64,000 bases of DNA, taken from contig OZ024744.1 in NCBI GenBank assembly GCA_964016885.1, forward strand, positions 100,192,001 to 100,256,000, read 5' to 3'. Under the pieces are notes generated by a model that did not search any database, was not told where the DNA came from, and saw nothing but the letters and a program-made list of their open reading frames with translations. The translations under genes and the position numbers were made by a program. Shown piece by piece: positions 1 to 60,687 of this stretch. The first letter of the stretch is position 1; the number at the start of each line of letters is the position of its first letter. Source of the DNA: Eledone cirrhosa. Its lineage: Eukaryota.

Positions 1-1103
1 TTATGTTCTGAGTTCAAGCTTTGCCTTTCATCTTTACAGGGTTGATAAAGAGTACCAGTAATACACTGGAGGTTCATTTAATTGACTTTCACCTCCCCCC
101 TACCCAAATTAGAAACCATTATTATTATTATCACTATCAAGCAAAACCAGTAGAGCATCGGATATCCTGCTTTGCGGCAGTTTCGGCCCTTTACGATACG
201 AGTTCAAATCCCGCCAAGGTTAACTTTGCCTTTCATCCTTACGGGGTTGATAAAATAAAGCACCAGTAATGCACTGGGGGATTCATTTAATTGACCCCCC
301 CCCCCACACACACACACGCTGGCCTTGTACCAAAATCGATAATCATTATCATCAAAATAAATACTGAGTAAACACCAAACAACAATTCTAGATTAAATAT
401 CTGTAAATTTTTTTTTTTAATTGCAATCAATAAAAAAAAAAAAAAAAAAAAGAAAAAAAAATTCATTTTATAAGTATTTTGAAATCATACAATACAATAA
501 AAAAAAAAAAATTGCAAACAAATACTGAAATCATATTTTTAAGGAAATTAATAAAAATAAAAAAATACATATGAAGACATATTGCTTTATTTAAGTGATT
601 GGACTTCCAGAAAATGCTGATTTTTGTCATGAATATAAACTTATGTTTTCTTTTCCTCACCTGTCATATTGCCATATTCTAATTACAGTTTAGCTTCAGA
701 CATTAAGAACCATTTGTATAACAAATAACAGGTATTTTACAACAAGACAAAATTGTTTTTACTTTGAATAATTTGTAGATATTAACACTTTCAAAACTTA
801 AAATTAAACATATATGAGAGAGAGAAAGAAAGAAAGAAATAGAGAGTCCCGAGTTCAATTGGCGGAAACCATAGTAAGTAAGGTACTCAATACATTAATA
901 GAGTGTATACAACAATATTTAATATAGAAATGACTTCTACAGGACTAGAAACCGTTTCATAGGAAGGAAATAATCAGGAAAAGGGGTTTTCTTGATTTCC
1001 TTCGAATGAAACAGTTCTAGTTCTGTAGAAGCTATTTCTACATTAAATTTTGTTATATATATATATATATATATAATTACATAACAACATAATTATTCCA
1101 TTA

Positions 1104-1169
<66 letters not shown>

Positions 1170-1631
1170 CGAAGGAAATGTGGTAAGGAACCAGGTGGAC
1201 CATAACGCACCAAAGTACTCAATACTTGAAGTAGTAGAGTGGGTAATAGGAACCAGTAAGACCCCGACAGCTGAGCTCAAGCCGTTTCGACGGCTAATTG
1301 GAAAGTCACTAATCTTCCAAATAATATTTAAGTATATAATACATCTGACACCCTGTTATTTTGACCTGCTATTTAATTAGATAAGTGATATATATTATCT
1401 GTTCTTAAATGATTTGTATTGAAGATTTCTATAGTTTATGCTAACTAATAGCAAATTGTTAAATAAAAATAAAATAACTTGATGTCAGTGGTATATTTCT
1501 ATGGGAAGAAACAATTGACAGTGATTAAATGTTTAGAAATTTTAATTTTGGTTTATAAGTACATTGTAATTATATATAATATATATATATATAAATATAT
1601 ATTTAATTTTGAGTTTTGAAAGAGCGTGCGA

Positions 1632-1686
<55 letters not shown>

Positions 1687-2039
1687 TCATTCAAGAAAAG
1701 TAGTCTCAACTCTAGATTCAAACTACAAAAACTAATATTCCACTATGATATGATTATCATTACAGATCTATACAGTGATAAACCCTGACAAAAGAGTAAA
1801 TCTAGTCTCTTTAATTCAAAGTTACTGGATAGATAGACAGACAGGGGGAGAATTATGATACAGATTTTTAGAAAATAGCTTTATATTGAAAATTCTATCA
1901 ATATTCTTTCAATATGGAATTTATTTTGATATTAACTAACTATACCATCATTTGCAAGATACAGTATGTAAATCAAGGCATATTTTATATATATATATAT
2001 ATAATATATAGTTATGTAATAAACAACATAAGATAATTA

Positions 2040-2099
2040 TTTCATTTACCAGTGGTTTCTTGAAAGCAAACAAAATTTGCTTCAGTCATCAGAATGAAA
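2040..2099 (-). ncRNA. Type I hammerhead ribozyme fold (short stem III, Penelope-like), CLUH sense strand
   Basis: Minus strand reads TTTCATT-CTGATGA-C TGAAGCAAA ttttg TTTGCTTTCA A-GAAA-CC act GG-TA-AATGAAA: complete core, 7-bp stem I, 9-bp stem II, GUA cleavage triplet. Confidence 0.7.
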
Positions 2100-2107
2100 A
2101 AAATCCT

Positions 2108-2156
<49 letters not shown>

Positions 2157-2957
2157 CAGGATTTTTTCATTCTGATGATAAACAGGATTTTATCACCTGT
2201 GATAAACAGGCTAAACACCTGAGTAACAAGACTCACTATTTAGCATTAATAAATTAATATTAAAACTACTTCAGTATTGAGTTGTCTTTTCTCTCAGTCG
2301 TCAACCATATACAGATATATACATACAGACACACAGACAGACAGAGAGAGACAAACACAGATCCCTAGCTTTTCTCAAATGTTATCGCATAACAAATGAT
2401 ACAATAAGTGGAACCAATTTTATATTACTATAGAATTAACAAAAGATGTACACTGAACTTTAACTTCCTTTTAGCAACGAAACATGGAAAATGTCACCTT
2501 AAACATCACCCTAAACATTTGGGAATCACACTTATTACCTGAGAGATACTAAATTTGGCTTTGTAAATACCTATTTTGATATTTCCCCCATACAAAATTT
2601 AACTCTTAACATCCTGCAATAATTTAGCAGAAAAATATATTTAAAAAGTTTTGTTAATTTAAATGTTTATAGTATCTTTACTATTGGACAGATTATGAAA
2701 ATTTACAGTATTTTGAATAAAGATTTACTTTTTAATGTGATACAGCCGTAGTACTGTTTTGTACTTTACAAGACTGTTTTGCTAATGTGGTACAGGAGGT
2801 TAAGAGCTAATCTAGAATTTGGAATTTAATATTGCCAAAAGTTAAAACAAAAATAAAGGTTATTAATGTAAAGGGTTGTATTTCATACATTAACAGAACT
2901 TGTTTAATAATAAAAGCTACATTAAACAATATTTCAAAACAACATTTCAATGTATAT

Positions 2958-3320
2958 CAGGCTGTATCAAAATGAATCATCCCATCTCAAAAGGCTATAT
3001 TTTTTTAAACGAATGACCATATTATCATTCTGAATATAATGTTTTATTCTTATTTATAACTTTTATAATTTTTTATAAAGTTATGTACACTTTTTACATG
3101 CATTTCCGTCTGCTTCAACATGTCGACCCAGCAACAAAAAGCATTCTGCATCCTCCACTTCAACAAGTGTGAGTCAAGAGGAGGGCATATTGAGCATTTG
3201 TAAAAATTGTAAATAAAACATATTATCGTGTGGTAACTTGTACAATACATATCTGAATATGTTCATTTGTTTTAAAAATATAGTCTTTTGAAATTGGATG
3301 ATTCTTTTTGATACAGCCTG
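2958..3320 (+). mobile_element. Internally deleted Tc1/mariner-superfamily element (MITE)
   Basis: TIRs CAGGCTGTATCAAAA...TTTTGATACAGCCTG followed by TA; mini-ORF 3120-3203 MSTQQQKAFCILHFNKCESRGGHIEHL* resembles fused transposase N- and C-termini. Confidence 0.75.
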
Positions 3321-5260
3321 TATCAGTCAATTTAAACCAAGATTTATGGAAGGCTGACATTTTACACAGCAAGTCCGTTTACAGCTTAATCTTTACAACT
3401 ATAATGCCCCATGAAAAAATAGAGAACAGAAATTTTATAATTAACTGAAAAAGTGATAACGTAAGTTGATAAATACACCTTTATGAAAACATGTTTAGTA
3501 ACTCCATTTTGGTCAACTAATTTCATCTACCAACAAATATACCCCCCAAAAATAACAGAGAGAGAGAGAGAGTCTGTCTGTCTGTCTCTGTGTGTGTCTG
3601 TGTATGTGTATGTGTGTGTATGTGTATGTGTGTGTGTGTGCATGTTTATGTATGATCTTGAAACCAAGGGCTGCAAATTTATTCAGACATAAGACAGACA
3701 ATGAAATGAACTATGAAGGGATCAATCTCGCAACCTTTGTAGTTTACCATTTACGTTACTGAGTTTCTTCATTTCTATGTTAGATTCTCCATAAAAAAAA
3801 CTTCCTATCCTGAAAATGTCTCACTGTATACAACAATAATTTGAAAATGTGGCAGACACTAAACCCTTTTGTTACTGGCTCTAGTGCTATGAAATAAAAC
3901 CACCCATTTTAAAGGTTTCCAATTTAAATTAAATATCTTCCAACATAATTTCATAAAAAAAAAACCTTACATTAACTTACTATCTTACCAAACTGACCAA
4001 AACCAGCTCTGGTTCTATGAAATAAAACCACCTATTTTAAAGGTTTCTAATTTAAATCTTCCAACATAATTTTATATAAGAACCTTACATTAACTATCTT
4101 AGTAATGAAATAACTTTAGTAAATCTCTTAATATTCTTAATTAATTAATTAAAATAGTGTATCTCATTAAAAATGTGGTCATAAAACAGCTAATAAATTC
4201 ATTATTAACTAGTTCTCTTCTGCAACATCAATTTTCAATTGTTGACTAGAAAACAAATTTTAGTTTTATGCAGTTGCTGTTATGATGTAGACATAATTCG
4301 TTCTCCAACTGCATTTGTTGCAGATGATACAAGTATATAGAGAGAGACAGAGAGAGAGGTTCAACCAATGAAATGATAGAGAGATGATGATAATGATTAG
4401 TTTCTAAGTATTTGGTTCAAATCATGTTATAAACAATGTATTATGTATTTAAGCCACTGTATTTTTTCCCCAAAATAAGCACCTCTTCAACATTTAATAG
4501 TAATTGTAATTAAGAAGAGCAATGTAAACATTTCTTTCTAATTTTGCTAAACTAACTATATATATATATATTGTTGTTATATAACAATAATTATAATAAT
4601 AATAAACACCATTCCAATTGTTTGTTCAATCAAATAGTGGATTACACAATTTTAAACCGAACAAAAAAAAAAAAAAAAAAAAAAAACGAAAACATTTAAG
4701 TAAATGAGCTCGATGGATATTTCTATTTTTTTGTCAGCAAATTTTTTTTTCAGGCTTCTAACACACATTCACATACACACACACATACATACACACACAT
4801 ATTAAGTAAGTTTTTTTACACAAAATTCTATTTCCTTTTTATAGAAAAATTTATTTATCTTCATTGAAAAAAAAAAAAAAAATAGATATATTTGCAAGTA
4901 AACAGTCATTCAATTATAGAAAATTAATAACACACGCACAAAAAAAAAAAAAAAAAATCCTATAAACATTTACTGACAAAAAAAAATGTAACAAAATGAA
5001 AAATATATTTTTGATTTCACTAGCTTTGAAAAAAAATATTCTTGCTCTTTCTCTAATAAATAATACCTCCTGAACATAAGAAATCAATTTCTCAATGTTT
5101 CTTGAAATTAAACATTTGCTTAATTTTCTTCTAAAACATTCCAAAACCAAATGAAAAACCAATAAGAAACTAAATTAAACCATGAATTAGAGACAAGATT
5201 TTAGTTTTTCAGTTCATGGGTATATTTAAACAAATAATTGTGAAATATTTAAAAACTACA

Positions 5261-5477
5261 TCATCCTTCAGTTATTATAACTTCATTTGTCAAATGTGAA
5301 CAATCTAAATTTCCATTTGTAAGTCCAGTAATATCTTCAGATTTTCCTTTTTTCACTTGATTACCTGATTCTAACTCCTCTGATACACCATTTTTAAACA
5401 ATTCAGGAGTATCAGTATGTGATCCGAGTTGAGAACGTTTCAACATTTCTAACCGAAAACGCTCAATGTCTTCAGGG
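5261..5477 (-). CDS. CLUH: CLUH terminal coding exon (PEDIERFRLEMLKRSQLGSHTDTPELFKNG...EVIITEG*)
   Basis: aatcag acceptor; phase 2 matches the previous exon; TGA at 5263-5261; lies within ORF 5261..5572. Confidence 0.9.
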
Positions 5478-5550
5478 CTGATTTTAAAAAGTATAGAAAA
5501 AGAGAGAGAAAAAAAAATCAAATAAGATTCATCTAGAAACATTAATTCTA

Positions 5551-5757
5551 ATAAACCCTTTAGCATTTCCACTACTCTATATATATATACTATTGTATTT
5601 TCATGGTAAAGGCTTTACCTCACATAATATTGAATCTGAGATTTAGATATTTATTTTGAGAACAATACCTTAACATCAGTATGAGCAGCTGGTTACAGCC
5701 AGTTTGAACAGAAAGAGGTGAGAGAATTCGGGCTGGTTTAAATGCTAAAGGGTTAAA
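5551..5757. mobile_element. piggyBac-type MITE family 1 (about 200-240 bp); other copies near 18985-19332 (split by a SINE), 24002-24428, 25008-25219, 26515-26723, 32645-32864, 38620-38822, 40039-40244, 62712-62933
   Basis: TTAA|CCCTTTAGCATTT...AAATGCTAAAGGG|TTAA termini and a shared internal sequence. Confidence 0.8.
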
Positions 5758-6692
5758 TTAAATAACATAAAAAATAGATTATTATTATTATTATTTAACT
5801 TTGCCTTTCATCCTTACAGAGTCGATAAAATAAAGTACCAGTAATGCACTGGGATAATTGCTGGCCTTGTGCCAAAAGTAGAAACAATTATTATTATTAT
5901 CATTATTAGGGTGGTGGTGGGTGGATTGGCAGTATCGGTAGAGTGTTGGACAACATACTTTGTGGCAATGCTATGGCCCATTCACACCATCCTCCTCTAT
6001 GGCTGCAAGACGTGGCCAGCAGCAAGATTTATGCAAGCTGGAAGTTTTAACCACTTTTGCATTCATTGAATTGTCGAAGTTCAAACATTGGGATTTATGC
6101 AAAATGACAAAATTCATTGTTACTGCTGTATCGATTCCCTCCAACAACACAACACTTTTCTGTTGGTTTGGTCATGCACTTTGCTGCCCAAGAAGTGAAA
6201 TCATCTGTAATGCAGTTGTACTGTATTCCTCCTGAGGTGATGTAAACGGCAAGGTAAACAGTTGAAAATGTGGATTGGCATGATCAAGTGGTTGGTGTTA
6301 CGAAGGGCATCCAGCCTTAGAAAACCTGCCAGAGACACAGTCTCCCGGCCAATCCCGCATCAAATGGAAGAAAACTGTCTAACCCATGCTAGTGTGGAAG
6401 ATGGACATTAAATGATCTTGAGATAACATCTGCTCCTCACATATTCGATGTCTGTCGTTGGAGTCATGGCCGACTTTATCTGCATTGGATGCCATGCATG
6501 GGCAACGTCTCTTGACAATGTTGTAGGAGCAATGGATGGAGCTGGTCCAACCCATGCTAGGTGAACATCAACACAAGTACAGAGTAAGTATTCTACATAT
6601 GATGCTGGAATGTTGCATATGTACGTGTAAAACCAAATTTCAAATATTTTTCAGGCATTTTATTTTTTTAAAATTATGTATGGCATCATCAT

Positions 6693-7105
6693 CACTCATC
6701 ACTCGTTGACTACTGTCGAGATGATGGATCTCACTCTCATGCCCCAGAATCCCCTGTCCCCCATCGCTGCCCCCAGGTCCTGTCTGCTGATTCCCGTATC
6801 CCTAGAGATAACGTCAGGGAATGACAGCCTCCTACTCCTAGTCAGGCTGGAGTCAGGGTTCCACAGCAAGAGAGCGGATATGATTTCATTGCTGGCACGG
6901 TGACAGTGGCCAGCAAATTGAGCTCTCCGGGATTTTAGAAGGGCAGAGGATCGAGGGAATTTACCATAGATTTTAGACAAGGTGGGATGTCGTTTCCAGG
7001 ATAGGTTTTGCACTCTCATTAAGAGGCGGGTATATGTGCCATCCAATCTTCTCTCAAGTTGTGATGTTAGTGTCCAAGTTTCGGATCCATAAAGTAATAT
7101 GGGCT
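6693..7105 (-). mobile_element. RTE/RTE-X LINE 3' fragment
   Basis: LLYGSETWTLT...LDGTYTRLLMRVQNLSWK...RRAQFAGHC motifs and a (TGA/TGAG)n tail. Confidence 0.85.
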
Positions 7106-7422
7106 TCCAGGGGGAAGTCTTGTACTCACAGTCGCTTCACACCATAGAAACTGAGATAAGAACCAGACTGATAAGCCTCCAGGCTCAAGAAAGACTAAAC
7201 TTTTATGGCATACCCGGCTGATGTATTAGGTCTGAACTTAAAGCATTATTTAAATAGAGGGTTGGACGCCATGCTTTCTAGCATAGTTACGTCCCTTTAC
7301 GGTTTGAGTTCAAATCCCGCTGAGGTTAACTTTGCTTTCATCCTTACGGGGGTCGATAAAATAAAGTACCAGTAATGTACTGGCCTTGTGCCTAAAGTAG
7401 AAACAATTATTTAAATAAGACA

Positions 7423-8659: not shown

Positions 8660-8794
8660 CTGAAGAGGAGCAAAATTTATACTTTTTTCTCCTTTGCAGA
8701 TTTCATTCATTTTCTTTTGAAAAACTACAGCTTGTTGAGTCAAATGTTTTAGGCATTCAGAACTTTCTTTGGTTCTCTCATGTTCTTCACCAAG
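8660..8794 (-). CDS. CLUH: CLUH coding exon ([45 protein letters not shown])
   Basis: tttaag acceptor and gtcagt donor, 135 nt; LGE.HE.TKESSE.LK.LTQQAV motif. Confidence 0.96.
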
Positions 8795-19388: not shown

Positions 19389-19580
19389 CTCAGAATACTC
19401 TCCCATGATATAGTTGAGCCGTGCAAGTAACCGCAAACAAGCAGCAATGTCTGGGTGCATTGCACCGTAGACATTGTTTAAAAGATTTAGTGCTTCACTA
19501 ATTAAATCATATCCTTCTCTTAAAAGTCCTTGCTGAATTTTGCTTTGACCACTTGTGAAAAAATGATAAGCATCACTAGC
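19389..19580 (-). CDS. CLUH: CLUH coding exon, start of TPR region ([18 protein letters not shown]...[15 protein letters not shown])
   Basis: tttcag/gtgagt sites, 192 nt; very close to the recalled vertebrate CLUH segment. Confidence 0.97.
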
Positions 19581-20211
19581 CTGAAAAATAAAATTTTGAC
19601 CATCAGACAGTAAATAATTATATGCGTAACTGGACATAAAAATATGTTGGTAATCTCAACAGGAATAGCTTGTTAATAATGATAATAGAGGTAATAAAAC
19701 ATTTTATAATTGCATTTTACTGTGACATTAGCACTCATTTTACAGAGTGTACAAGGTGTATGTTATCGTGTACAGGAGGCATTTTATCCTGGAACCGTCG
19801 CAACCACTTTACCGAGTGTACTGGGTACATTTTATTGAGACACCAACACTATCACTTTAACAAGTGTACTGGGTACATTTTATTGAGGCACCAACACTAC
19901 CACTCTACAGGGTGTACTGGGTACATTTTATTATGACACCAGCACTACCACTTCATTAAGTGGACTAAGTACATTTTGTGGTACCAACTCTGCCACTTTA
20001 CTAAGTGTACTGGGTACATTTTATTGTGGTACCAACACTGCCACTTTACAGCAGCTACTGGGTACATTTTATTGTGGTACCAACACTGCCACTTTATAGC
20101 AGCTACTGGGTACATTTTATTGTGGTACCAACACTGCCACTTTACTGAGTGTACTAGGTATATTTTATTATTATTTTCATTTACATAAAACCAATTCCAC
20201 CTTTTCTGAAA

Positions 20212-31667: not shown

Positions 31668-32332
31668 AACGATGGTTGCTGGACACTAAGGCTTAATATG
31701 GGATGTTTGTTTACAAACACACCGAGCATTATAATAAATGTTCGGTGATTCCATACGTACATATATATGTGTGTGCATGTATGTATATATATATATATAC
31801 ATACTACTGTACGTCTGTATACATATATGTATGTACGTGTACATACTTATATTTAAGTAACAGCCGTACAAAGAGTGGGAAATGAAATTTTGTTTCATTT
31901 TTTCCGTTTATCGTTTTCGGTGCACTCGGCCAATTAACCCACTCGATATGCAAATTGGGCTGCTCAGCCGTTAATATGCATAAGGTAAGTATATACGTTC
32001 AACAATCTGGCAGGAAGGTATACGTTCAACAATCTGGCAGGAAGGTATACGTTACTGACGATAGCTAATAAGCTTGAAACTAGTACAGCGTTCCTTTGTC
32101 AGTGTTGAACAAACGAGCAACGATGGTTGCTAGACACTGTACGGCTTAATTCGGGATGTTTGTTTACAAACACACCGAGCATTATAATAAATGTTCGGCG
32201 ATTCCATACGTACATATATATATATACATACTACTGTACGTCTGTATACATATATGTATGTACGTGTACATACTTAAATATAAGTAACAGCCGTACTAAG
32301 AGTGGGAAATGAAATTTCGTTTCATTTTTTCC

Positions 32333-33524: not shown

Positions 33525-35300
33525 CTTTATTAGCCACAGGGGCACAAAAGAAGGGGACAAATACAAAGGGGGAAGTTTACATACAATAAAAACGTGTAAA
33601 ATATTATCACAAATGCAATTTAAAAATTAGTCAATTTTCCCCAATAGGGGGAGACAGTTCATATGGGTAACAGATACCCCCGAAAAAAAAAAAATGTGCA
33701 ACCCTCATCTCCAGGAGTACGAAGAGTTTGTACTCCCTTCCTCTCCTTAACCTACAGGCTGATATAGAGAGAAAGCCCATTCACTCGGGCCATTCTCACC
33801 ACTTTCACCCACCTTTCATAAAACTTGCTGGGGTACAGCACCTCTCTCTCCATCCTGATTCTTCTTCCAAAGTGGTATTTGAAAAAAAGAATCAGTTGTT
33901 GGCTGGAGAGAAAGGTGTCTGACCTCAGCCCTTTCAACCTTGTCCACCATATAACCTCTTTCGCCATAGCTATCACACAAAGGAAAACCGCCTCTCCTTC
34001 GTTTTTGAAGGAGGGTGGCGGTTTGATCATGACAATGGACTCGGTGGTCAACCGGATTAGTCCCACCCGCGACAATAGTCGTTCTACATAGCCCCACAGG
34101 TCGGTGACGCCCGGGCAGTGTATGAATGCGTGTGTGACAGTTTCTTCATCTCGCACGCACCTCGGACAGATCTTTTTTGCAGGGTCCCTGCCCGGGCACC
34201 CATGTCTGTAGAGCTTGTCTCGAACTGGTAGAGCTCCTCGGTAGCACTGCCAGGCCAGGGACTTTTGGAAGTTGTCCATCGGTCCTGGGCGGAAGGTCCT
34301 ACCGAACAGACTGGCCAGTTCATCTTCCTCTACGCCTAGAGTTTCACCGAGCACGTCGTCGCGCTTGCTGCGGATCAACCCTCTATAGAATGACGAAGTG
34401 GAGTCTCCACTGATCGCCAGGTCCGCCTGCCAGAGGGCTGTGAGCGCCTGAGCACCAGTCGCCCATTTTCCTCGGTCTTTGCTTGACCCAGGACTGCAGC
34501 TCGGTCAGCAAGACGAATCGTGGGAAGGCTCGCCTCACGAACGGGGTCCACACCGGTTGTCCAGTGAGGAATACGTAGAGATGCCGCCGCTTGAGCATGT
34601 GTTTGCGCATTGTCAGCCATGGCATCCCCAGCCCTCCGTTAGAAGGGTGTTGGCAACAGATGGATCTTCTCACCAAACGAGCCCGCCTCTTCCAAAGGTA
34701 TTGGAACAGCGTGCGCTCCATCTTGGTGAGCGTTTTGGCTGGGCAAGGCACGACGGTCAAGCGGTAGTAGATGGCGGACGCTATAAAAGTGTTCGCCACC
34801 TCCGCTCGACCTTTCAAGGATAGTTTGCACTCGGCCCACTTCTGGGTGAGTGCAAACACCTTGGCCATCACCTTGTTCCTGTTCTTCTCCACCTGGAGGT
34901 CCGGACCAAACCAGATCCCGAGCAGTTTTACCGGTCCTTCCGTCCAGTGCCCGATGACACCATCGGAAGGCATCGGTTTGCCTCTCCACGATCCGAGTTG
35001 CAAACCGATGGACTTGTCCCGGTTCAGCTTCTCTCCAGTGAAACTTTCGTATTCCTTCAGTAAGGTGCCGACTTCCTCGATTTGCGAGGCACTCGACACC
35101 ATTACCGTCACGTCGTTGGCGTAGGCCGACGCCGCTTTCCGCAGTCCCAGTTCCAGAGGGATGCCCTGCAATAGCTCCAACTTCCGCAGTAGTGACTCGA
35201 GAGTCAGTACGTACAGAAGGGAGGAGAGAGAGGGCATCCCTGTTGAATGGATCGCGTGATATGAACCGGCTCCGAGAGGTAGCCGTTCACCGTGACCCTA
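33525..35300 (-). mobile_element. 5'-truncated L1/Tx1-clade LINE relic (RT C-terminal half, zinc finger and 3' UTR)
   Basis: ORFs 34383..35237 and 33752..34378 contain SIQQGCPLSP, YAND (degenerate YADD), LSLKGRAEVANT, GGLG.P and CPRC..EETVTHAFIHC; frameshifted; related 3' fragment at 7895-8220. Confidence 0.88.
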
Positions 35301-36447
35301 TTTTTAGATACATAGATATAACGTTGCGCCCTTATAATATCTGTCTGTATTACGACATTATGACGCTGAGGGAAGAAAAATGTAGAAAGAAATGTAAAAA
35401 CAAACGTAAAAAGATATAAGAAAACCAGAGGATTTACCGTATTTCCTGGCGCCGTAGACGCAACTTTTTTTCGTAAAATAAGTCTCAAAAATCCACCATG
35501 TGTCCTGGGGGGCGAACGTTGCATTTTTCATTATTATTATATTATTTATTTTTTTCAAATTTTTTGTTATTAAGACCAGGGTATGTCCTCGAGGACAAAG
35601 CGTCTTCGGCACTGGGAAATATGGTACCCTTGGAATAGATTTATTCATCTCTATATTTCCGATTACTTACCGGGGTGGGGGGGTGGGGGGGGGGGGAGAT
35701 CTGAAAGGAAAGATTTGTCAGGAAAGAAAACCCACGTGGCCGTTTGTAGCTACCATCGATGTCAGAATATTCTTTGACATTCAACCAGTCTAACAGGCAT
35801 GGCATACAGGCAAAAATCATTTAAAGTTAGTCGTCATCACTGAGGTGTGGATGGGTGTGGTATCGTGGCACACCAGGGACATTGACTTCTTGTGTTCTGG
35901 TAGTGGTTCAGGAGGGTGATATGTTGGTGACAGCTACAGCATAGTAGTAGTAATAGTAGTAGTAGTGGTGGTGGTGGTGGTGGTAGTGCCTGTCCATTGT
36001 TATAACATTCGCTCATCTGTTATTGTATGTGTTGTCATTTGTGTTAGACCAGTTACCACACTTCGCTCCTTTTGGATCTGTTAGTTGGTGGTTCCAATTG
36101 TTTTATAAATGGCCTTGCTCAATATGTAAGAAAAGTGTAGGTAGGAACTCCATCCTCTGCCCCAAATGCAAACTATGAGTACACAAGAGATGTAGTGGGA
36201 TCTCAGGAAGTTTAACTAAGAATGTAGGCTTCACATGTAGCAGCTGCACTGAGGCAGGAAGCAACTAACAGCCACAGGAACCAAGCACCACCAAACTCTG
36301 GGAGGGCTCTGTAAAAACAGTAGACAGCTTCTGCTATTTGAGTGACTGAATTAGCAGCGGAGGTGGGTGTTCAGAAAGTACAGTAACCAGGGTAAGAACG
36401 GGATGGAAGAAGTTCAGGGAGCTACTGCCACTGCTAGCTGCAAAAGG

Positions 36448-38080
36448 CTAAAAAATAAACCCAACCATGCCTCTCCTGGTCTTGATGGCGTTATGCATCT
36501 GCTTCTCAAATGTGATGGGTACTTCCTTCTGCACCAGCTATCACGCTTCTTCCAATTCTGTCTGAACAATGGTGCTACTCCAGAACAGTGGAAAACTGCC
36601 AGTGTCATTCCTCTGGTCAAAAAGGGTGACCGCACATCACCTGTGAACTATCATCCAGTCAGTCTTACTAGCTGCATTGCCAAACTGGTGGAATCCTGTG
36701 TCAGAGAAACGCTTTGGAACTTCTGGAACTCTCACAGTCTTATCCGGCCCTCGCAACTTGGATTTATCCCTAACTCCAGCTGCTGTGATCAACTTATCGA
36801 GTTTCTAGAAGACATCACACGGATCACTGATGACAGCTCATGGGTGGATGTTGTTTACCTTGACTTTGCTAAAGCTTTCAATTCTGTGCCACACAAAAGA
36901 CTTGTGGCAAAACTCTCTGCAATGGGTGTGAAGGATGATCTTTTTAACTGGTTGAAGTCCTTCATTCTCAGTCGAAGAGAGGTAGTCACGGTTCTAGGAC
37001 AGCATTCCTCACCATATGAGATGTCATCTAGTGTACCAGAGGGATCTGTTATTGGCCCCCTTTTGTTTGTGGCATTTATTAATGACATAGATGCCAACTT
37101 AAAGAATGCCACAGTACTGAAATATGCAGATGACATCAAGCTGTACCTTAAAATAAAAAGGACAGATCCTGCACACTATAGATCTTGCCTGGAATCTGAC
37201 CTGGACACAATGCAACAATGGATCACGGACTGGCAACTCAAGCTGGCTGTGGACAAGTGCACCACCATGCATTTTGGGAGTAAAAACACAGCATCCACAT
37301 ACTTCCTCCACAACACTGATATCAAGAAGTTCTCTTGTGAACGTGACCTGGGCATTACTGTCAGCAGCGATTTGCTTTGGACAAAGCAAGCCTCTAAAAT
37401 TGACGAGAAGGCCGAGGGTGTCTTAGCATCACTCAGCAAGACCTTTGTCAGTCACTCTCCAGCTATCTATTTGAAGCTGTATATAGCTATGGGGCAGCCA
37501 CACTTAGAATTTGCATCATCAGTATGGAAGCCCTATCTTGCTCAGAACATTGCACATCTCTGAACAGTTTCCAGACGGTCAACCAAGCGAATCCCCTCCA
37601 TCAGGCATCTACCATATTCTGAGCATCTTGCTTCCCTGGACCTGGATACATTGAAGCTCTGACATCTGGCAACTGACTTGGTAAACACCCACAAAATTGT
37701 TAACCATCTTACCAACAACAACCCTGAGTATCTTTTTGATTTCCATGTGTCTAACACAAGTAGACATGCCTACAAAGTCAGAAAACAGCACAGTTCACAT
37801 GACTTTCAGAAACATTTTTTCACGCTCAGAGTTGCTGAAGCATGGAACAAACTACCTGCATCAGTTGTTAGCTGCCGAGACACTGCATTCTTTAAAACCT
37901 CCATGCTTCCTGAGATTCGCCAACACTACACCTAATATTCCCCCTCCATACACATGCACACATGTATATCATGACTCATACACTGTTCACTTCCCTGACA
38001 TTTGTACATTATTCTATGCACCTTTGATGAGTTTTAGTGCACCTGAGCACTGTACACAATAATTTCATTATTATTATTAT
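36448..38080 (+). mobile_element. 5'-truncated CR1-clade LINE (RT domain with YADD); 3'-end fragments also at 21965-22330 (-) and 25872-26080 (-)
   Basis: ORF 36367..37563 contains SPGLDG, YLDFAKAF, VPEGSVIGPLLF and KYADDIKL; premature stops after 37560; (ATT)n tail. Confidence 0.92.
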
Positions 38081-40531: not shown

Positions 40532-40567
40532 TCTCAACGTTTCAGACACTAGTCCTTCATCAGAAGA
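40532..40567 (-). ncRNA. Minimal Penelope-type hammerhead motif in a dispersed repeat (about 40475-40590)
   Basis: Minus strand reads TCTT-CTGATGA-A GGAC tagt GTCT-GAAAC-GTT-GAGA; palindromic AACGTT in the stem III position. Confidence 0.6.
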
Positions 40568-41717: not shown

Positions 41718-44700
41718 CACCAACAGACGAGAACTGTCATTATGACCCACACCTTTATAATCTTACTTCTATATACTCCCCACCTACAGACGAGAACTGT
41801 CATTATGACCCACACCTTTATAATCTTACTTCTATATACCCCCCACCTACAGACGAGAACTGTCTCATTATGACCCACACCTTTATAACCTTACTTCTAT
41901 ATACCCCCCACCTACAGACGAGAACTGTCATTATGACCCACACCTTTATAATCTTACTTCTATATACCCCCCACCTACAGACGAGAACTGTCTCATCATG
42001 ACCCACTCCTTTATAATCTTACTTCTATATACCCCCCACCTACAGACGAGAACTGTCTCATTATGACCCACTCCTTTATAATCTTACTTCTATATACTCC
42101 CCACCTACACACGAGAACTGTCTCATTATGACCCACACCTTTATAACCTTACTTCGATATACCCCCCACCTACAGACGAGAACTGTCATTATGACCCACA
42201 CCTTTATAATCTTACTTCTATATACCCCCCACCTACAGACGAGAACTGTCATTATGACCCACACCTTTATAATCTTACTTCTATATACTCCCCACCTACA
42301 GACGAGAACTGTCTCATTATGACCCACTCCTTTATAATCTTACTTCTATATACCCCCCACCTACAGACGAGAACTGTCATTATGACCCACACCTTTATAA
42401 TCTTACTTCTATATACCCCCCACCAACAGATGAGAACTGTCATTATGACCCACACCTTTATAATCTTACTTCTATATACCCCCCACCTACAGACGAGAAC
42501 TGTCTCATTATGACCCACTCCTTTATAATCTTACTTCTATATACCCCCACCTACAGACGAGAACTGTCATCATGACCCACACCTTTATAATCTTACTTCT
42601 ATATACTCCCCACCTACAGATGAGAACTGTCTCATTATGACCCACACCTTTATAACCTTACTTCTATATACCCCCCACCTACAGACGAGAACTGTCATCA
42701 TGACCCACACCTTTATAATCTTACTTCTATATACACCCCACCTACAGACGAGAACTGTCATTATGACCCACACCTTTATAATCTTACTTCTATATACTCC
42801 CCACCTACAGACGAGAACTGTCTCATCATGACCCACACCTTTATAATCTTACTTCTATATACCCCCCACCTACAGACGAGAACTGTCATTATGACCCACT
42901 CCTTTATAATCTTCTATATACCCCCCACCTACAGACGAGAACTGTCTCATCATGACCCACACCTTTATAATCTTACTTCTATATACTCCCCACCAACAGA
43001 CGAGAACTGTCTCATCATGACCCACACCTTTATAATCTTACTTCTATATACTCCCCACCTACAGATGAGAACTGTCTCATTATGACCCACACCTTTATAA
43101 CCTTACTTCTATATACTCCCCACCTACAGACGAGAACTGTCATTATGACCCACTCCTTTAAAATCTTACTTCTATATACTCCCCACCTACAGACGAGAAC
43201 TGTCATTATGACCCACTCCTTTAAAATCTTACTTCTATATACTCCCCACCTACAGACGAGAACTGTCATTATGACCCACTCCTTTAAAATCTTACTTCTA
43301 TATACTCCCCACCTACAGACGAGAACTGTCTCATCATGACCCACACCTTTATAATCTTACTTCTATATACTCCCCACCTACAGACGAGAACTGTCATTAT
43401 GACCCACACCTTTATAATCTTACTTCTATATACTCCCCACCTACAGACGAGAACTGTCATTATGACCCACTCCTTTATAATCTTACTTCTATATACCCCC
43501 CACCTACAGACGAGAACTGTCATCATGACCCACTCCTTTATAATCTTACTTCTATATACTCCCCACCTACAGACGAGAACTGTCTCATCATGACCCACTC
43601 CTTTATAATCTTACTTCTATATACTCCCCACCTACAGACGAGAACTGTCATTATGACCCACTCCTTTATAATCTTACTTCTATATACCCCCCACCTACAG
43701 ACGAGAACTGTCATTATGACCCACACCTTTATAATCTTACTTCTATATACCCCCCACCTACAGACGAGAACTGTCATTATGACCCACTCCTTTATAACCT
43801 TACTTCTATATACCCCCCACCTACAGACGAGAACTGTCTCATTATGACCCACACCTTTATAATCTTACTTCTATATACCCCCCACCTACAGACGAGAACT
43901 GTCATTATGACCCACACCTTTATAATCTTACTTCTATATACCCCCCACCTACAGACGAGAACTGTCTCATCATGACCCACTCCTTTATAATCTTACTTCT
44001 ATATACCCCCCACCTACAGACGAGAACTGTCTCATCATGACCCACTCCTTTATAATCTTACTTCTATATACCCCCCACCTACAGACGAGAACTGTCTCAT
44101 CATGACCCACTCCTTTATAACCTTACTTCTATATACTCCCCACCTACAGACGAGAACTGTCTCATCATGACCCACACCTTTATAATCTTACTTCTATATA
44201 CCCCCCACCTACAGACGAGAACTGTCTCATCATGACCCACTCCTTTATAACCTTACTTCTATATACTCCCCACCTACAGACGAGAACTGTCTCATCATGA
44301 CCCACTCCTTTATAACCTTACTTCTATATACCCCCCACCTACAGACGAGAACTGTCATTATGACCCACACCTTTATAATCTTACTTCTATATACCCCCCA
44401 CCTACAGACGAGAACTGTCATCATGACCCACACCTTTATAACCTTACTTCTATATACTCCCCACCTACAGATGAGAACTGTCTCATTATGACCCACACCT
44501 TTATAACCTTACTTCTATATACCCCCCACCTACAGACGAGAACTGTCTCATTATGACCCACACCTTTATAATCTTACTTCTATATACTCCCCACCTACAG
44601 ACGAGAACTGTCATTATGACCCACACCTTTATAATCTTACTTCTATATACCCCCCACCTACAGATGAGAACTGTCATTATGACCCACACCTTTATAATCT

Positions 44701-47700
44701 TACTTCTATATACCCCCCACCTACAGACGAGAACTGTCATTATGACCCACACCTTTATAATCTTACTTCTATATACTCCCCACCTACAGACGAGAACTGT
44801 CTCATCATGACCCACTCCTTTATAATCTTACTTCTATATACTCCCCACCTACAGACGAGAACTGTCTCATCATGACCCACACCTTTATAATCTTACTTCT
44901 ATATACTCCCCACCTACAGACGAGAACTGTCTCATGACCCACACCTTTATAATCTTACTTCTATATACCCCCCACCTACAGACGAGAACTGTCTCATCAT
45001 GACCCACACCTTTATAATCTTACTTCTATATACCCCCCACCTACAGACGAGAACTGTCTCATCATGACCCACACCTTTATAATCTTACTTCTATATACCC
45101 CCCACCTACAGACGAGAACTGTCATTATGACCCACTCCTTTATAACCTTACTTCTATATACTCCCCACCTACAGACGAGAACTGTCTCATCATGACCCAC
45201 ACCTTTATAATCTTACTTCTATATACCCCCCACCTACAGACGAGAACTGTCATCATGACCCACTCCTTTATAACCTTACTTCTATATACCCCCCACCTAC
45301 AGATGAGAACTGTCTCATTATGACCCACACCTTTATAACCTTACTTCTATATACTCCCCACCTACAGACGAGAACTGTCTCATTATGACCCACACCTTTA
45401 TAACCTTACTTCTATATACTCCCCACCTACAGACGAGAACTGTCATCATGACCCACTCCTTTATACCCCCCACCTACAGACGAGAACTGTCATCATGACC
45501 CACTCCTTTATAATCTTACTTCTATATACCCCCCACCTACAGACGAGAACTGTCATTATGACCCACACCTTTATAACCTTACTTCTATATACTCCCCACC
45601 TACAGACGAGAACTGTCTCATCATGACCCACACCTTTATAATCTTACTTCTATATACCCCCCACCTACAGACGAGAACTGTCATTATGACCCACACCTTT
45701 ATAATCTTACTTCTATATACTCCCTACCTACAGACGAGAACTGTCATTATGACCCACACCTTTATAACCTTACTTCTATATACTCCCCACCTACAGACGA
45801 GAACTGTCTCATGTCCCACACCTTTATAATCTTACTTCTATATACTCCCCACCTACAGACGAGAACTGTCATCATGACCCACTCCTTTATAATCTTACTT
45901 CTATATACCCCCCACCTACAGACGAGAACTGTCTCATCATGACCCACACCTTTATAATCTTACTTCTATATACCCCCCACCTACAGACGAGAACTGTCAT
46001 TATGACCCACTCCTTTATAATCTTACTTCTATATACCCCCCACCTACAGACGAGAACTGTCTCATCATGACCCACACCTTTATAATCTTACTTCTATATA
46101 CCCCCCACCTACAGACGAGAACTGTCATTATGACCCACACCTTTATAACCTTACTTCTATATACCCCCCACCTACAGACGAGAACTGTCATTATGACCCA
46201 CACCTTTATAATCTTACTTCTATATACCCCCCACCTACAGATGAGAACTGTCATTATGACCCACACCTTTATAATCTTACTTCTATATACCCCCCACCTA
46301 CAGACGAGAACTGTCATTATGACCCACACCTTTATAATCTTACTTCTATATACCCCCCACCTACAGACGAGAACTGTCATTATGACCCACACCTTTATAA
46401 TCTTACTTCTATATACTCCCCACCTACAGACGAGAACTGTCTCATTATGACCCACTCCTTTATAATCTTACTTCTATATACCCCCCACCTACAGACGAGA
46501 ACTGTCATTATGACCCACACCTTTATAATCTTACTTCTATATACCCCCCACCAACAGATGAGAACTGTCATTATGACCCACACCTTTATAATCTTACTTC
46601 TATATACCCCCCACCTACAGACGAGAACTGTCTCATTATGACCCACTCCTTTATAATCTTACTTCTATATACCCCCCACCTACAGACGAGAACTGTCATC
46701 ATGACCCACACCTTTATAATCTTACTTCTATATACTCCCCACCTACAGATGAGAACTGTCTCATTATGACCCACACCTTTATAACCTTACTTCTATATAC
46801 CCCCCACCTACAGACGAGAACTCATCATGACCCACACCTTTATAATCTTACTTCTATATACACCCCACCTACAGACGAGAACTGTCATTATGACCCACAC
46901 CTTTATAATCTTACTTCTATATACTCCCCACCTACAGACGAGAACTGTCTCATCATGACCCACACCTTTATAATCTTACTTCTATATACCCCCCACCTAC
47001 AGACGAGAACTGTCATTATGACCCACTCCTTTATAATCTTCTATATACCCCCCACCTACAGACGAGAACTGTCTCATCATGACCCACACCTTTATAATCT
47101 TACTTCTATATACTCCCCACCAACAGACGAGAACTGTCTCATCATGACCCACACCTTTATAATCTTACTTCTATATACTCCCCACCTACAGATGAGAACT
47201 GTCTCATTATGACCCACACCTTTATAACCTTACTTCTATATACTCCCCACCTACAGACGAGAACTGTCATTATGACCCACTCCTTTAAAATCTTACTTCT
47301 ATATACTCCCCACCTACAGACGAGAACTGTCATTATGACCCACTCCTTTAAAATCTTACTTCTATATACTCCCCACCTACAGACGAGAACTGTCATTATG
47401 ACCCACTCCTTTATAATCTTACTTCTATATACCCCCCACCTACAGACGAGAACTGTCATCATGACCCACACCTTTATAATCTTACTTCTATATACTCCCC
47501 ACCTACAGATGAGAACTGTCTCATTATGACCCACACCTTTATAACCTTACTTCTATATACCCCCCACCTACAGACGAGAACTGTCATTATGACCCACTCC
47601 TTTATAATCTTACTTCTATATACCCCCCACCTACAGACGAGAACTGTCTCATTATGACCCACACCTTTATAATCTTACTTCTATATACTCCCCACCTACA

Positions 47701-50700
47701 GACGAGAACTGTCATTATGACCCACACCTTTATAATCTTACTTCTATATACCCCCCACCTACAGATGAGAACTGTCATTATGACCCACACCTTTATAATC
47801 TTACTTCTATATACCCCCCACCTACAGACGAGAACTGTCATTATGACCCACACCTTTATAATCTTACTTCTATATACTCCCCACCTACAGACGAGAACTG
47901 TCTCATCATGACCCACTCCTTTATAATCTTACTTCTATATACTCCCCACCTACAGACGAGAACTGTCTCATCATGAGCAACACCTTTATAATCTTACTTC
48001 TATATACTCCCCACCTACAGACGAGAACTGTCTCATTATGACCCACACCTTTATAATCTTACTTCTATATACCCCCCACCTACAGACGAGAACTGTCTCA
48101 TCATGACCCACACCTTTATAATCTTACTTCTATATACCCCCCACCTACAGACGAGAACTGTCTCATCATGACCCACACCTTTATAATCTTACTTCTATAT
48201 ACCCCCCACCTACAGACGAGAACTGTCATTATGACCCACTCCTTTATAACCTTACTTCTATATACTCCCCACCTACAGACGAGAACTGTCTCATCATGAC
48301 CCACACCTTTATAATCTTACTTCTATATACCCCCCACCTACAGACGAGAACTGTCATCATGACCCACTCCTTTATAACCTTACTTCTATATACCCCCCAC
48401 CTACAGATGAGAACTGTCTCATTATGACCCACACCTTTATAACCTTACTTCTATATACTCCCCACCTACAGACGAGAACTGTCTCATTATGACCCACACC
48501 TTTATAACCTTACTTCTATATACTCCCCACCTACAGACGAGAACTGTCATCATGACCCACTCCTTTATAATCTTACTTCTATATACCCCCCACCTACAGA
48601 CGAGAACTGTCATCATGACCCACTCCTTTATAATCTTACTTCTATATACCCCCCACCTACAGACGAGAACTGTCATTATGACCCACACCTTTATAACCTT
48701 ACTTCTATATACTCCCCACCTACAGACGAGAACTGTCTCATCATGACCCACACCTTTATAATCTTACTTCTATATACCCCCCACCTACAGACGAGAACTG
48801 TCATTATGACCCACACCTTTATAATCTTACTTCTATATACTCCCCACCTACAGACGAGAACTGTCATTATGACCCACACCTTTATAACCTTACTTCTATA
48901 TACTCCCCACCTACAGACGAGAACTGTCTCATGTCCCACACCTTTATAATCTTACTTCTATATACTCCCCACCTACAGACGAGAACTGTCATCATGACCC
49001 ACTCCTTTATAATCTTACTTCTATATACCCCCCACCTACAGACGAGAACTGTCTCATCATGACCCACACCTTTATAATCTTACTTCTATATACCCCCCAC
49101 CTACAGACGAGAACTGTCATTATGACCCACTCCTTTATAATCTTACTTCTATATACCCCCCACCTACAGACGAGAACTGTCTCATCATGACCCACACCTT
49201 TATAATCTTACTTCTATATACCCCCCACCTACAGACGAGAACTGTCATTATGACCCACACCTTTATAACCTTACTTCTATATACCCCCCACCTACAGACG
49301 AGAACTGTCATTATGACCCACACCTTTATAATCTTACTTCTATATACCCCCCACCTACAGATGAGAACTGTCATTATGACCCACACCTTTATAATCTTAC
49401 TTCTATATACCCCCCACCTACAGACGAGAACTGTCATTATGACCCACACCTTTATAATCTTACTTCTATATACTCCCCACCTACAGACGAGAACTGTCTC
49501 ATGTCCCACACCTTTATAATCTTACTTCTATATACCCCCCACCTACAGACGAGAACTGTCATCATGACCCACTCCTTTATAATCTTACTTCTATATACCC
49601 CCCCACCTACAGACGAGAACTGTCTCATCATGACCCACACCTTTATAATCTTACTTCTATATACCCCCCACCTACAGACGAGAACTGTCATTATGACCCA
49701 CACCTTTATAACCTTACTTCTATATACCCCCCACCTACAGACGAGAACTGTCATTATGACCCACACCTTTATAATCTTACTTCTATATACCCCCCACCTA
49801 CAGACGAGAACTGTCTCATCATGACCCACACCTTTATAATCTTACTTCTATATACCCCCCACCTACAGACGAGAACTGTCTCATCATGACCCACACCTTT
49901 ATAATCTTACTTCTATATACCCCCCACCTACAGACGAGAACTGTCTCATCATGACCCACACCTTTATAATCTTACTTCTATATACCCCCCACCTACAGAC
50001 GAGAACTGTCTCATCATGACCCACACCTTTATAATCTTACTTCTATATACCCCCCACCTACAGACGAGAACTGTCATTATGACCCACACCTTTATAACGT
50101 TACTTCTATATACCCCCCACCTACAGACGAGAACTGTCATTATGACCCACACCTTTATAATCTTACTTCTATATACCCCCCACCTACAGACGAGAACTGT
50201 CTCATCATGACCCACACCTTTATAATCTTACTTCTATATACCCCCCACCTACAGACGAGAACTGTCTCATCATGACCCACACCTTTATAATCTTACTTCT
50301 ATATACCCCCCACCTACAGACGAGAACTGTCTCATCATGACCCACACCTTTATAATCTTACTTCTATATACCCCCCACCTACAGACGAGAACTGTCATTA
50401 TGACCCACACCTTTATAACCTTACTTCTATATACCCCCCACCTACAGACGAGAACTGTCTCATTATGACCCACTCCTTTATAATCTTACTTCTATATACC
50501 CCCACCTACAGACGAGAACTGTCATTATGACCCACACCTTTATAATCTTACTTCTATATACCCCCCACCTACAGACGAGAACTGTCATTATGACCCACAC
50601 CTTTATAATCTTACTTCTATATACCCCCCACCTACAGACGAGAACTGTCATCATGACCCACTCCTTTATAATCTTACTTCTATATACTCCCCACCTACAG

Positions 50701-51342
50701 ACGAGAACTGTCATTATGACCCACACCTTTATAATCTTACTTCTATATACTCCCCACCAACAGACGAGAACTGTCATTATGACCCACACCTTTATAATCT
50801 TACTTCTATATACCCCCCACCTACAGACGAGAACTGTCATCATGACCCACTCCTTTATAATCTTACTTCTATATACTCCCCACCTACAGACGAGAACTGT
50901 CATTATGACCCACACCTTTATAACCTTACTTCTATATACTCCCCACCTACAGACGAGAACTGTCTCATTATGACCCACACCTTTATAATCTTACTTCTAT
51001 ATACTCCCCACCAACAGATGAGAACTGTCTCATCATGACCCACTCCTTTATAATCTTACTTCTATATACCCCCCACCTACAGACGAGAACTGTCTCATCA
51101 TGACCCACACCTTTATAATCTTACTTCTATATACTCCCCACCAACAGATGAGAACTGTCTCATCATGACCCACTCCTTTATAATCTTACTTCTATATACT
51201 CCCCACCTACAGACGAGAACTGTCTCATCATGACCCACACCTTTATAATCTTACTTCTATATACTCCCCACCTACAGACGAGAACTGTCATTATGACCCA
51301 CTCCTTTATAATCTTACTTCTATATACTCCCCACCTACAGAC
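41718..51342. repeat. Intronic satellite, 63/65-bp unit, about 150 copies
   Basis: Unit CACCTACAGACGAGAACTGT(CT)CATYATGACCCACWCCTTTATAAYCTTACTTCTATATACYCCC repeated head to tail. Confidence 0.98.
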
Positions 51343-52230: not shown

Positions 52231-52324
52231 ATGATTCAATATTTCCATTAAGTGCTTCAACTATTTTTTTCACATCTGTTGCACTTTCTTCAGTTAAAGA
52301 ATCAGCTTTTATCACAGAATTTGC
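52231..52324 (-). CDS. CLUH: CLUH coding exon (ANSVIKADSLTEESATDVKKIVEALNGNIES)
   Basis: cttcag/gtaagt sites, 94 nt, phase 0 to 1, open frame; low-conservation linker region. Confidence 0.8.
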
Positions 52325-52357
52325 CTGAAGAGAAAGTAAGGATTATTATTATTCTCA

Positions 52358-55300
52358 TCTCCACCAATACCATCATAAACACCACCACAATCAACATCAC
52401 ACCATTACCACCACCACCATTACCAATACCATCAACACCACCACAATCAACATCACACCATTACCACCACCACAATCAACATCACACCACCACCAATACC
52501 ATCAACATCACACCATTACCACCACCACCATCACAATTAACATCACACCATTACCACCACCACCATCAACACCACCACAATCAACATCACACCACCAATA
52601 CCATCAACACCACCACAATCAACATCACACCACCAATACCATCAACACCACCACAATCAACATCACACCACCACAATCAACATCACACTATTACCACCAC
52701 CACCATCACAATTAACATCACACCATTACCACCACCACCATCAACACCACCACAATCAACATCACACCACCAATACCATCAACACCACCACAATCAACAT
52801 CACACCACCAATACCATCAACACCACCACAATCAACATCACACCACCAATACCATCAACACCACCACAATCAACATCACACCACCACAATCAACATCACA
52901 CTATTACCACCACCACCACCAATACCATCAACATCACACCATTACCACCACCACTAATACCATCAACACCACCACAATCAACAAATCCACAATCAACATT
53001 ACACTATTACCACCACCATCAACATCACACCATTACCACCAATACCATCAACACCATCACACCACCACCACAATCAACATCACACCACCAGTACCATCAA
53101 CACCACCACAATCAACATCACACCATTACCACCACCAATACCATCAACACCACCACAATCAACATCACACCATTACCACCACCACCACCAATACCATCAA
53201 CACCACCACAATCAACATCACACCATTACCACCAGCAATACCATCAACACCACCACAACCAATACCATCAACATCACACCATTACCACCACCACCATCAC
53301 AATCAACAACACACCACCACCAATACCATCAACACCACCACAATCGACATCACACCACCACCACCAATACCATCAACATCACACCATTACCACCACCACC
53401 AATACCATCAACACCACCACAATCAACATCACACCACACCATCAACACCACCACCATCAACACCACTACCACCAATACCATCAACATCACACCACCACCA
53501 TCAATACCATCAACACCATCACAATCAACATCACACCACCACCACCAATACAATCAACATCACACCACCAATACCATCAACACCACCACCATCACACTAT
53601 TACCACCACCACCAATACCATCAACACCACCACAATCAACATCACACCACCACCACCACAATCAACATCACACCATTACCACCACCAATACCATCAACAT
53701 CACACCATTACCACCACCACCAATACCATCAACACCACCACAATCAACATCACACCATTACCACCACCACCACCACAATCAACATCACACCACCAATACC
53801 ATCAACATCACACCATTACCACCAGCAATACCATCAACACCACCACAACCAATACCATTACCACCACCACCAATACCATCAACACCACCACCATCACCAT
53901 CAAAATCAACATCACACCACCACCACCAATACCATCAACACCACCACAATCGACATCACACCACCACCACCAATACCATCAACACCACCACAATCGACAT
54001 CACACCACCACCACAATCAACATCACACCATCAACACCACACCACCAATACCATCAACACCACCACAATCAACATCACACCATTACCACCACCACCATCA
54101 ATACCATCAACACCACCACAATCAACATCACACCATTACCACCACCACCATCAATACCATCAACACCACCACAATCAACATCACACCATTACCACCACCA
54201 CCATCAATACCATCAACACCACCACAATCAGCATCACACCACCACCACCACCACACTATTACCACCACCAATACCATCAACACCACCACCAATACCATCA
54301 ATACCACCACAATCAACATCAAACCATTACCACCAATACCATCAACACCACCACAATCAACATCACACCACCACCACAACAATCAACATCACACCATTAC
54401 CACCACCACCACCAAAACCATCAACACCACCACCAATACCATCAACACCACCACCACCACAATCAACATCACGCCATTACCACCACCACCAATACCATCA
54501 ACACCACCACAATCAACATCACACCACCACCACCACCACCACAATCAACATCACACCATTACCACCAGCAATACCATCAACACCACCACAATCAACATCA
54601 CACCATTACCACCACCACCATCAACACCATCACACCACCAATACCATCAACACCACCACAATCAACATCACACCATTACCACCACCACCATCAATACCAT
54701 CAACACCACCACAATCAACATCACACCATTACCACCACCACCACCACAATCAACATCACACCATTACCACCACCACCACCACAATCAACATCACACCATT
54801 ACCACCAGCAATACCATCAACATCACACCAATACCATCAACACCACCCCAATCAACATCACACCATTACCACCACCACCACCACAATCAACATCACACCA
54901 CCAATACCATCAACACCACCACAATCAACATCACACCACCACCACCACAATCAACATCACACCATTACCACCACCACAATCAACATCACACCATTACCAC
55001 CACCACAATCGACATCACAACACCACCACCACCACAATCAACATCACACCATTACCACCACCACCACCAATACCATTACCACCACCAACATCACACCATT
55101 ACCACCACCACAATCAACATCACACCACCACCAATACCATCAACACCACCAATACCATCAACACCACCACAATCAACATGACACCATTACCACCACCACC
55201 AATACCATCAACACCACCCCAATCAACATCACACCATTACCACCACCACCACCACAATCAACATCACACCACCAATACCATCAACACCACCACAATCAAC

Positions 55301-60612: not shown

Positions 60613-60687
60613 TCTGATGATGTCTTGCTCATACATTCCATTTTGGCCTGGTTTCTACAGCTGGATGCCCTTCATTATGCCAACCTC

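Follow-up and report, generated by a model that had tools for sequence, protein, structure and literature searches.

Does the hammerhead motif lying behind CLUH in Eledone cirrhosa govern the mRNA of that gene, or is it a ribozyme put out of action by its neighbouring sequence? A first-pass annotation of the window (the whole stretch of 64,000 nt from contig OZ024744.1 that was analysed) had offered both readings, the first being a gated regulator of CLUH like that of Clec2 and the second a ribozyme neutralised by a local inversion. The comparisons and folding models presented here support the second, in that the inverted arm is predicted to mask the motif. The site is very probably a masked end of a Hydra-clade Penelope-like element (PLE), inserted at (TA)n some 3.2 kb beyond the stop codon of CLUH, that would be inert for CLUH mRNA.

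A hammerhead motif downstream of CLUH

The identification of the host gene as CLUH is borne out by exon 19389–19583, which is 98 % identical to the Octopus sinensis protein named clustered mitochondria homolog, and by the mapping of this protein on the minus strand down to 5264. The motif is downstream of the CLUH stop codon (TGA, 5263–5261), as annotated, with 3,214 nt separating its predicted cut site from the stop.

5261–5477, minus strand: last CLUH coding exon and stop codon (tblastn to residue 1351; X3 contig match begins at the acceptor, 5477)
2040–2099, minus strand: type I hammerhead motif (sequence, constrained folding, and shuffle control; the parts below from sequence and constrained folding)
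2099–2093 (UUUCAUU) and 2046–2040 (AAUGAAA), minus strand: stem I
2092–2086, minus strand: catalytic core, CUGAUGA
2085–2060, minus strand: stem II
2059–2056, minus strand: GAAA
2056–2048, minus strand: stem III within ACCACUGGU
Between 2047 and 2046, minus strand: predicted cut, at the GUA triplet

In X3, which was taken as RNA from its behaviour only, a 3,997-nt contig of depth 12.3 matches from the acceptor at 5477 to 5183, and exon 8661–8794 is present at the same depth. Other X3 contigs are identical to the window at 1270–1566, 1696–1975, 2363–2627, 2661–3541, 3655–3915, and 4074–4649. RNA-like contigs cover both flanks of the motif, therefore it is likely that the site is transcribed. 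None of the X3 contigs spans the element and they reveal neither strand nor RNA ends, therefore placement of the hammerhead site within a long 3′ UTR of CLUH is likely only. Depths were 31–37 upstream and 18 downstream, contig depth being unable to rank parts of one gene, and candidate poly(A) signals are found on both sides of the element.

The stretch 2099–2040 contains CUGANGA, GAAA, and UH in order, together with helices I–III, and is thus a type I hammerhead. The first-pass annotation had every element in its place; these places were confirmed and are beyond chance, as the hammerhead descriptor matched the window twice, whereas 100 dinucleotide shuffles of it gave 0.01 matches on average and 1 at most, with a 7 bp helix I in none of the shuffle matches. 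The Infernal/Rfam check that had been proposed matched no hammerhead model in window 1–6000 (E≤1) or 2030–2108 (E≤10); a match to Rfam was taken as supporting evidence, not as defining the type.

Stem II had been described as closed by a C.A mismatch. The mismatch is there, however the stem joins the core only via a bulged U, because the window copy is without one A of the family sequence, and ViennaRNA leaves 2+3 bases next to the core unpaired instead of forming the bulged-U stem. This deletion is near-private to the window copy, being present at three places in the whole genome, and the core of the copy is still intact. In the numbering commonly used for hammerheads, the mismatched pair is 10.1/11.1. 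A local crippling mutation was considered for it and rejected: position 10.1 is C in 5/30, A in 5/30, and U in 20/30 of the sampled family copies, and the partner base is A in 100/100 among the matches listed. Mismatches at 10.1/11.1 are also common in the published Hydra hammerheads, as far as the available text extends, and a natural U.U has been reported at this pair (PMC3088659, available text). Judged by these comparisons of sequence, the C.A mismatch next to the core is a subfamily trait and not a local feature.

The Penelope-like family behind the motif

The motif is a member of a large family. The core with stem III has at least 4,188 exact genomic matches, an exact 30-mer of the motif occurs 1,439 times, and its 5′ part occurs 3,466 times, with no occurrence of the reversed-pattern control in each case. 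Nine stretches around spaced pairs of family copies were examined for full elements. Two of these, L051 and L052, have the Penelope-like arrangement of pLTR-ORF-pLTR with a hammerhead in the pLTR and are 93 % identical internally over 1.8 kb, and three others (L053, L056, and L057) contain ORF fragments. Over 99 nt, window 2110–2012 shares 97 % identity with the 3′ pLTR of L052; its identity to a pLTR of L051 is 96 %. The family has two distinct 3′ ends, separated by about 60 nt; the window copy ends at the short one, at a point common to family copies.

2009–2110, minus strand: 5′-truncated 3′ pLTR end assigned to a Hydra-clade PLE, short 3′ end, no tail (identity to L052 and L051; shared end point)
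1984–2011, no strand: (TA)-rich run at the 3′ end of the element, likely insertion target (in family copies, the short 3′ end runs into (TA)n)

The ORF contains FDIVDFYPS, YRDDG, and RYVGMT..F..R in this order, indicating a reverse transcriptase (RT) followed by a C-terminal GIY-YIG domain, and its pieces are collinear with intact relatives of about 700 aa (E values of 1e-96 and 8e-107). A Pfam search of six ORF pieces and four intact relatives gave no RT or GIY-YIG match, and the ORFs are broken in both full elements examined. Also as in PLEs, the family has 5′ truncation, inverted 5′ copies, and an optional tail. Section 11 of PMC8557442 characterises the Hydra clade by RWK, DKT, CxCX5C, and insertion at (TA)n; all are present here, CxCX5C in a linker, with CxxC and CxH near the end. 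The first-pass hint of a Penelope-like origin is thus given substance: identity to L052 and L051 makes the motif the 3′ pLTR end, with its hammerhead, of a Penelope-like retrotransposon that has the Hydra-clade marks and lies at (TA)n.

Within the family, 92.3 % of cells are paired across 29 distinct rows against 34–55 % when slid, stem III being fixed by the search pattern. Double changes occur at four pairs (shuffles, 3–67 of 500), the window row being misaligned in stem II. In X5, from another organism, depth was 57 at 2080 at 90 % likeness and about 13,000 over 2044–2087 at 85 % likeness, and the family is no longer regarded as lineage-specific on account of the latter. Coverage of the flanks 1692–1999 and 2308–2571 was zero at 85 %, and X5 is uninformative on the orthologous site. 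By chance, about 46–69 genes would be expected to have a sense family copy within 3.3 kb behind the stop, on an assumed number of 20,000–30,000 genes. As it stands, the window motif is ordinary, one among thousands of transposon ends.

The available text of PMC8557442 describes Hydra-clade PLEs that, like the family here, are short elements with a single ORF of RT and C-terminal GIY-YIG, RWK, DKT, CxCX5C, insertions at (TA)n, a 3′ hammerhead with a palindromic stem III, inverted 5′-truncated copies, and a tail at one end. In many of the hammerheads listed there, too, the base pair adjoining the core is mismatched or left open. The octopus family Hydra-1_Obim has stem III acca-a-tggt against acca-c-tggt here, and is distinct by eye in stems I and II and in the start of the ORF. 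In contrast to the listed elements, pLTRs are present here and the family stem II is longer, at 10 bp. The present family thus documents Hydra-clade elements with pLTRs in an octopus-like genome.

Minimal PLE hammerheads, in the portions of PMC4209133 and PMC11167929 available, are likewise type I, located in pLTRs, present as thousands of solo copies, built for dimers, and found in opposite-strand pairs 100–700 bp apart. Unlike those in PMC4209133, the family here is without G10.1-C11.1, having U, C, or A at 10.1 over a fixed A, and the window copy is predicted to be masked in cis. Non-LTR retrozymes (bioRxiv 10.64898/2026.07.22.740005, available part) share a type I hammerhead of PLE origin, but they form tandem arrays, whereas no same-strand pair within 300 nt was found for the family among the first 100 matches listed and the window contains a single unit rather than tandem hammerhead-bearing units.

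Some further features were seen among these repeats. A pyrimidine tract ending in CAG is located about 70 nt before the hammerhead in L052 (1500 and 1730) and in L051, and both elements have a CAG just past the tail, before the ORF; together these are possible splice acceptors of a PLE intron. Nested among the copies in L056 (4786–6001) and L057 (786–3203, minus strand) are long open frames that belong to further Hydra-like PLE families. Window 1170–1330 is a very high-copy repeat, of which L010 and L012 have two inverted copies head to head with (TA)n runs on either side, and is likely to be another PLE end. Window 930–1050 is an inverted repeat of about 100 bp with TA-rich flanks, either MITE-like or a PLE palindrome.

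The inverted arm and its predicted effect on folding

2111–2154, no strand: (TA)n spacer, self-complementary, top of the predicted hairpin (sequence and folding)
2152–2178, plus strand: inverted copy of the 5′ end of the element, through CTGATGA (2178–2155 pairs with 2086–2110 in CLUH-sense RNA)
2176–2210, plus strand: patchwork junction, with an 11-nt word doubled at 2176 and 2200 and short pieces like both elements between (sequence comparison)
2195–2310, plus strand: remains of a second repeat family that carries a hammerhead, antisense to CLUH, GAAA of the core decayed to TAAA (sequence comparison)

The inverted arm that had been annotated is real and is predicted to mask the 5′ arm of stem I and CUGAUGA, but its extent differs from the 2177–2152 and approximately 25 bp first given: 2178–2155 pairs with 2110–2086 over 24 bp with one bulged U, and addition of the self-pairing (UA)n run brings the predicted hairpin to 44 bp. 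With the arm, the hammerhead fold costs +18.0 and +17.1 kcal/mol; without it, +1.4 to +2.9 kcal/mol. When the growing transcript was folded, the hairpin covered the 5′ arm of stem I by transcript length 2092 and the core by 2086, with the masked state found at every length from 2092 onward. The hairpin pairs first because the arm is upstream in the transcript. An RNA switch has two states of similar energy, and the states here are separated by 17–18 kcal/mol. With this gap and the early hairpin, the model is therefore of an off state and not of a bistable switch, and the proposed folding comparison with and without the arm (17–18 against 1.4–2.9 kcal/mol) does not favour the gated reading.

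Inverted partners are routine in the family. Neighbouring pairs within 300 nt comprised 14 divergent, 0 convergent, and 0 tandem among the first 100 matches listed, an inverted upstream copy was found at 10/30 matches in a separate sample, and an inverted 5′-truncated copy at the 5′ end is typical of PLE insertions (PMC8557442, available text). It is therefore most likely, from these sequence comparisons, that the arm is a by-product of insertion or repair. The layout in the window is nonetheless atypical for the family, with a short arm, a (TA)n spacer, and a patchwork junction to a second hammerhead element. Complete inverted pairs had no (TA)n spacer (0/25 rows, 15 distinct pairs), other copies abutting (TA)n at the same point had no inverted arm (0/12), and the window arm stops exactly after the catalytic CUGAUGA. 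The arm probably arose when the self-complementary (TA)n folded back and synthesis jumped between microhomologies, as the element inserted or the site was repaired; alternatively, a full inverted copy may have lost its outer part. Junctions of this patchwork kind are generally read as template switches, and we infer such an origin here.

The second hammerhead family has 568 intact-core matches genome-wide. Its copies (2195–2310, plus strand; L062–L070 and L145–L149) usually carry C.C or C.U at the pair adjoining the core, with ACTC-N-GAGT as stem III, like published Hydra hammerheads. A chimeric plus-strand ribozyme formed from the arm and this family was rejected, as it would lack GAAA and no stem I is possible.

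Predicted consequences for CLUH mRNA

Rodent Clec2 3′ UTR hammerheads (PMC2950038), like the window motif, lie on the sense strand behind the stop codon. In the available text of that report, however, they are discontinuous, have counterparts in homologues from several mammals, and lower the expression of a reporter by 80 %, whereas the window motif is contiguous, has thousands of transposon copies beside it, and is off by prediction. A motif that is contiguous and has at least 4,188 copies is not a discontinuous, gene-specific ribozyme of the Clec2 type. This copy number and the inverted partners common in the family speak against the gated CLUH regulator first suggested, as do a masked state that is 17–18 kcal/mol more stable in the model and folds first, and a stem II deletion found at three places only.

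For the preferred reading of an inert masked insertion, the arm would be transcribed first, the (UA)n loop would nucleate the 44-bp hairpin, and the 5′ arm of stem I and CUGAUGA would already be paired by the time the 3′ arm of stem I is made. The ribozyme would stay permanently unfolded, so that it is likely to be without effect on CLUH mRNA. A lone copy free of the mask, with its 3-bp stem III, would probably need a dimer through ACCACUGGU or the protein of the element, and would still be weak, its stem II being one A short. According to the text available, no cleavage was seen with one minimal PLE hammerhead on its own (PMC4209133), and the PAc hammerhead requires protein, with no RNA-seq reads ending at its site (PMC11167929); among fungi, plants, and protists, some of the PLE hammerheads are canonical or monomer-active (PMC4209133). 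The atypical layout, the intact core, and the likely transcription would count against an inert insertion, and the masking is that of a folding model.

It is very unlikely, though the fold is very stable (z=−12.7), that the hairpin rather than the ribozyme matters, as a double-stranded 3′ UTR element whose editing or binding alters the fate of CLUH mRNA. Rfam matches to miRNA precursor models are sub-threshold, far under gathering scores, and were rejected as artefacts because the (TA)n run accounts for them; hairpins of this type form at many of the family copies.

A role as a leaky cutter, in which part of the CLUH transcripts would be cut in a trans-dimer with abundant element RNAs or with the protein of the element, with no regulatory role, is very improbable. 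Family sequence does occur in X3, protein-assisted cleavage has been shown for PAc (PMC11167929, available text), and two core copies are predicted to co-fold through ACCACUGGU (−28.8 against −10.4 per monomer; duplex −10.2), but the dimer would leave CUGAUGA locked in the 44-bp hairpin and the two full elements have broken ORFs.

It is extremely unlikely that A-to-I editing or a protein weakens the arm and lets the hammerhead cut off the distal 3′ UTR and poly(A) of CLUH mRNA, since the monomer is without a stable stem III, stem II is damaged, and editing would probably also strike core A6 and A9 in the same duplex. Editing of repeat-derived 3′ UTRs is common in squid (PMC9068888, available text), and there are 11 adenosines in the arm; with the most favourable 4–6 of these barred from pairing, the modelled barrier falls to 4.1–2.8 kcal/mol. 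This is an upper bound, as inosine still pairs weakly, and the median of the sets of 4–6 sites leaves 9.9–6.6 kcal/mol (60 sets sampled for three or more sites). A domesticated transposon hammerhead, whose A-rich arm would be edited by ADAR so that the core is freed and CLUH mRNA loses its distal 3′ UTR, is just as far from probable. If true, such an editing-gated cutter would tie cephalopod A-to-I editing to mRNA decay, and the ribozyme unmasked by editing would be a natural editing-controlled self-cleavage element; no natural case of this kind was found among the papers listed for it, judged by titles and the starts of abstracts.

Whether PLE hammerheads cut host transcripts is a question raised in the available text of PMC8557442 and PMC11167929, for which the present family is a natural experiment. 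More speculatively, inverted partners may let sense-strand PLE hammerheads survive inside host transcripts.

Other elements were observed in CLUH. A second, minimal hammerhead at 40563–40520 (minus strand; CTGATGA, 4-bp stem II, and GAAAC) is in an intron in the CLUH sense, and a similar motif flanks L019 and L083. A hammerhead-like core at 32055–32090 (plus strand; CTGACGA ... GAAA), antisense to CLUH, fails the hammerhead descriptor. The introns also contain LINE-like reverse transcriptase fragments (34000–37900 and 6700–7140) and two strand-skewed tandem arrays of about 9 kb, at 41800–51000 and 52250–61600.
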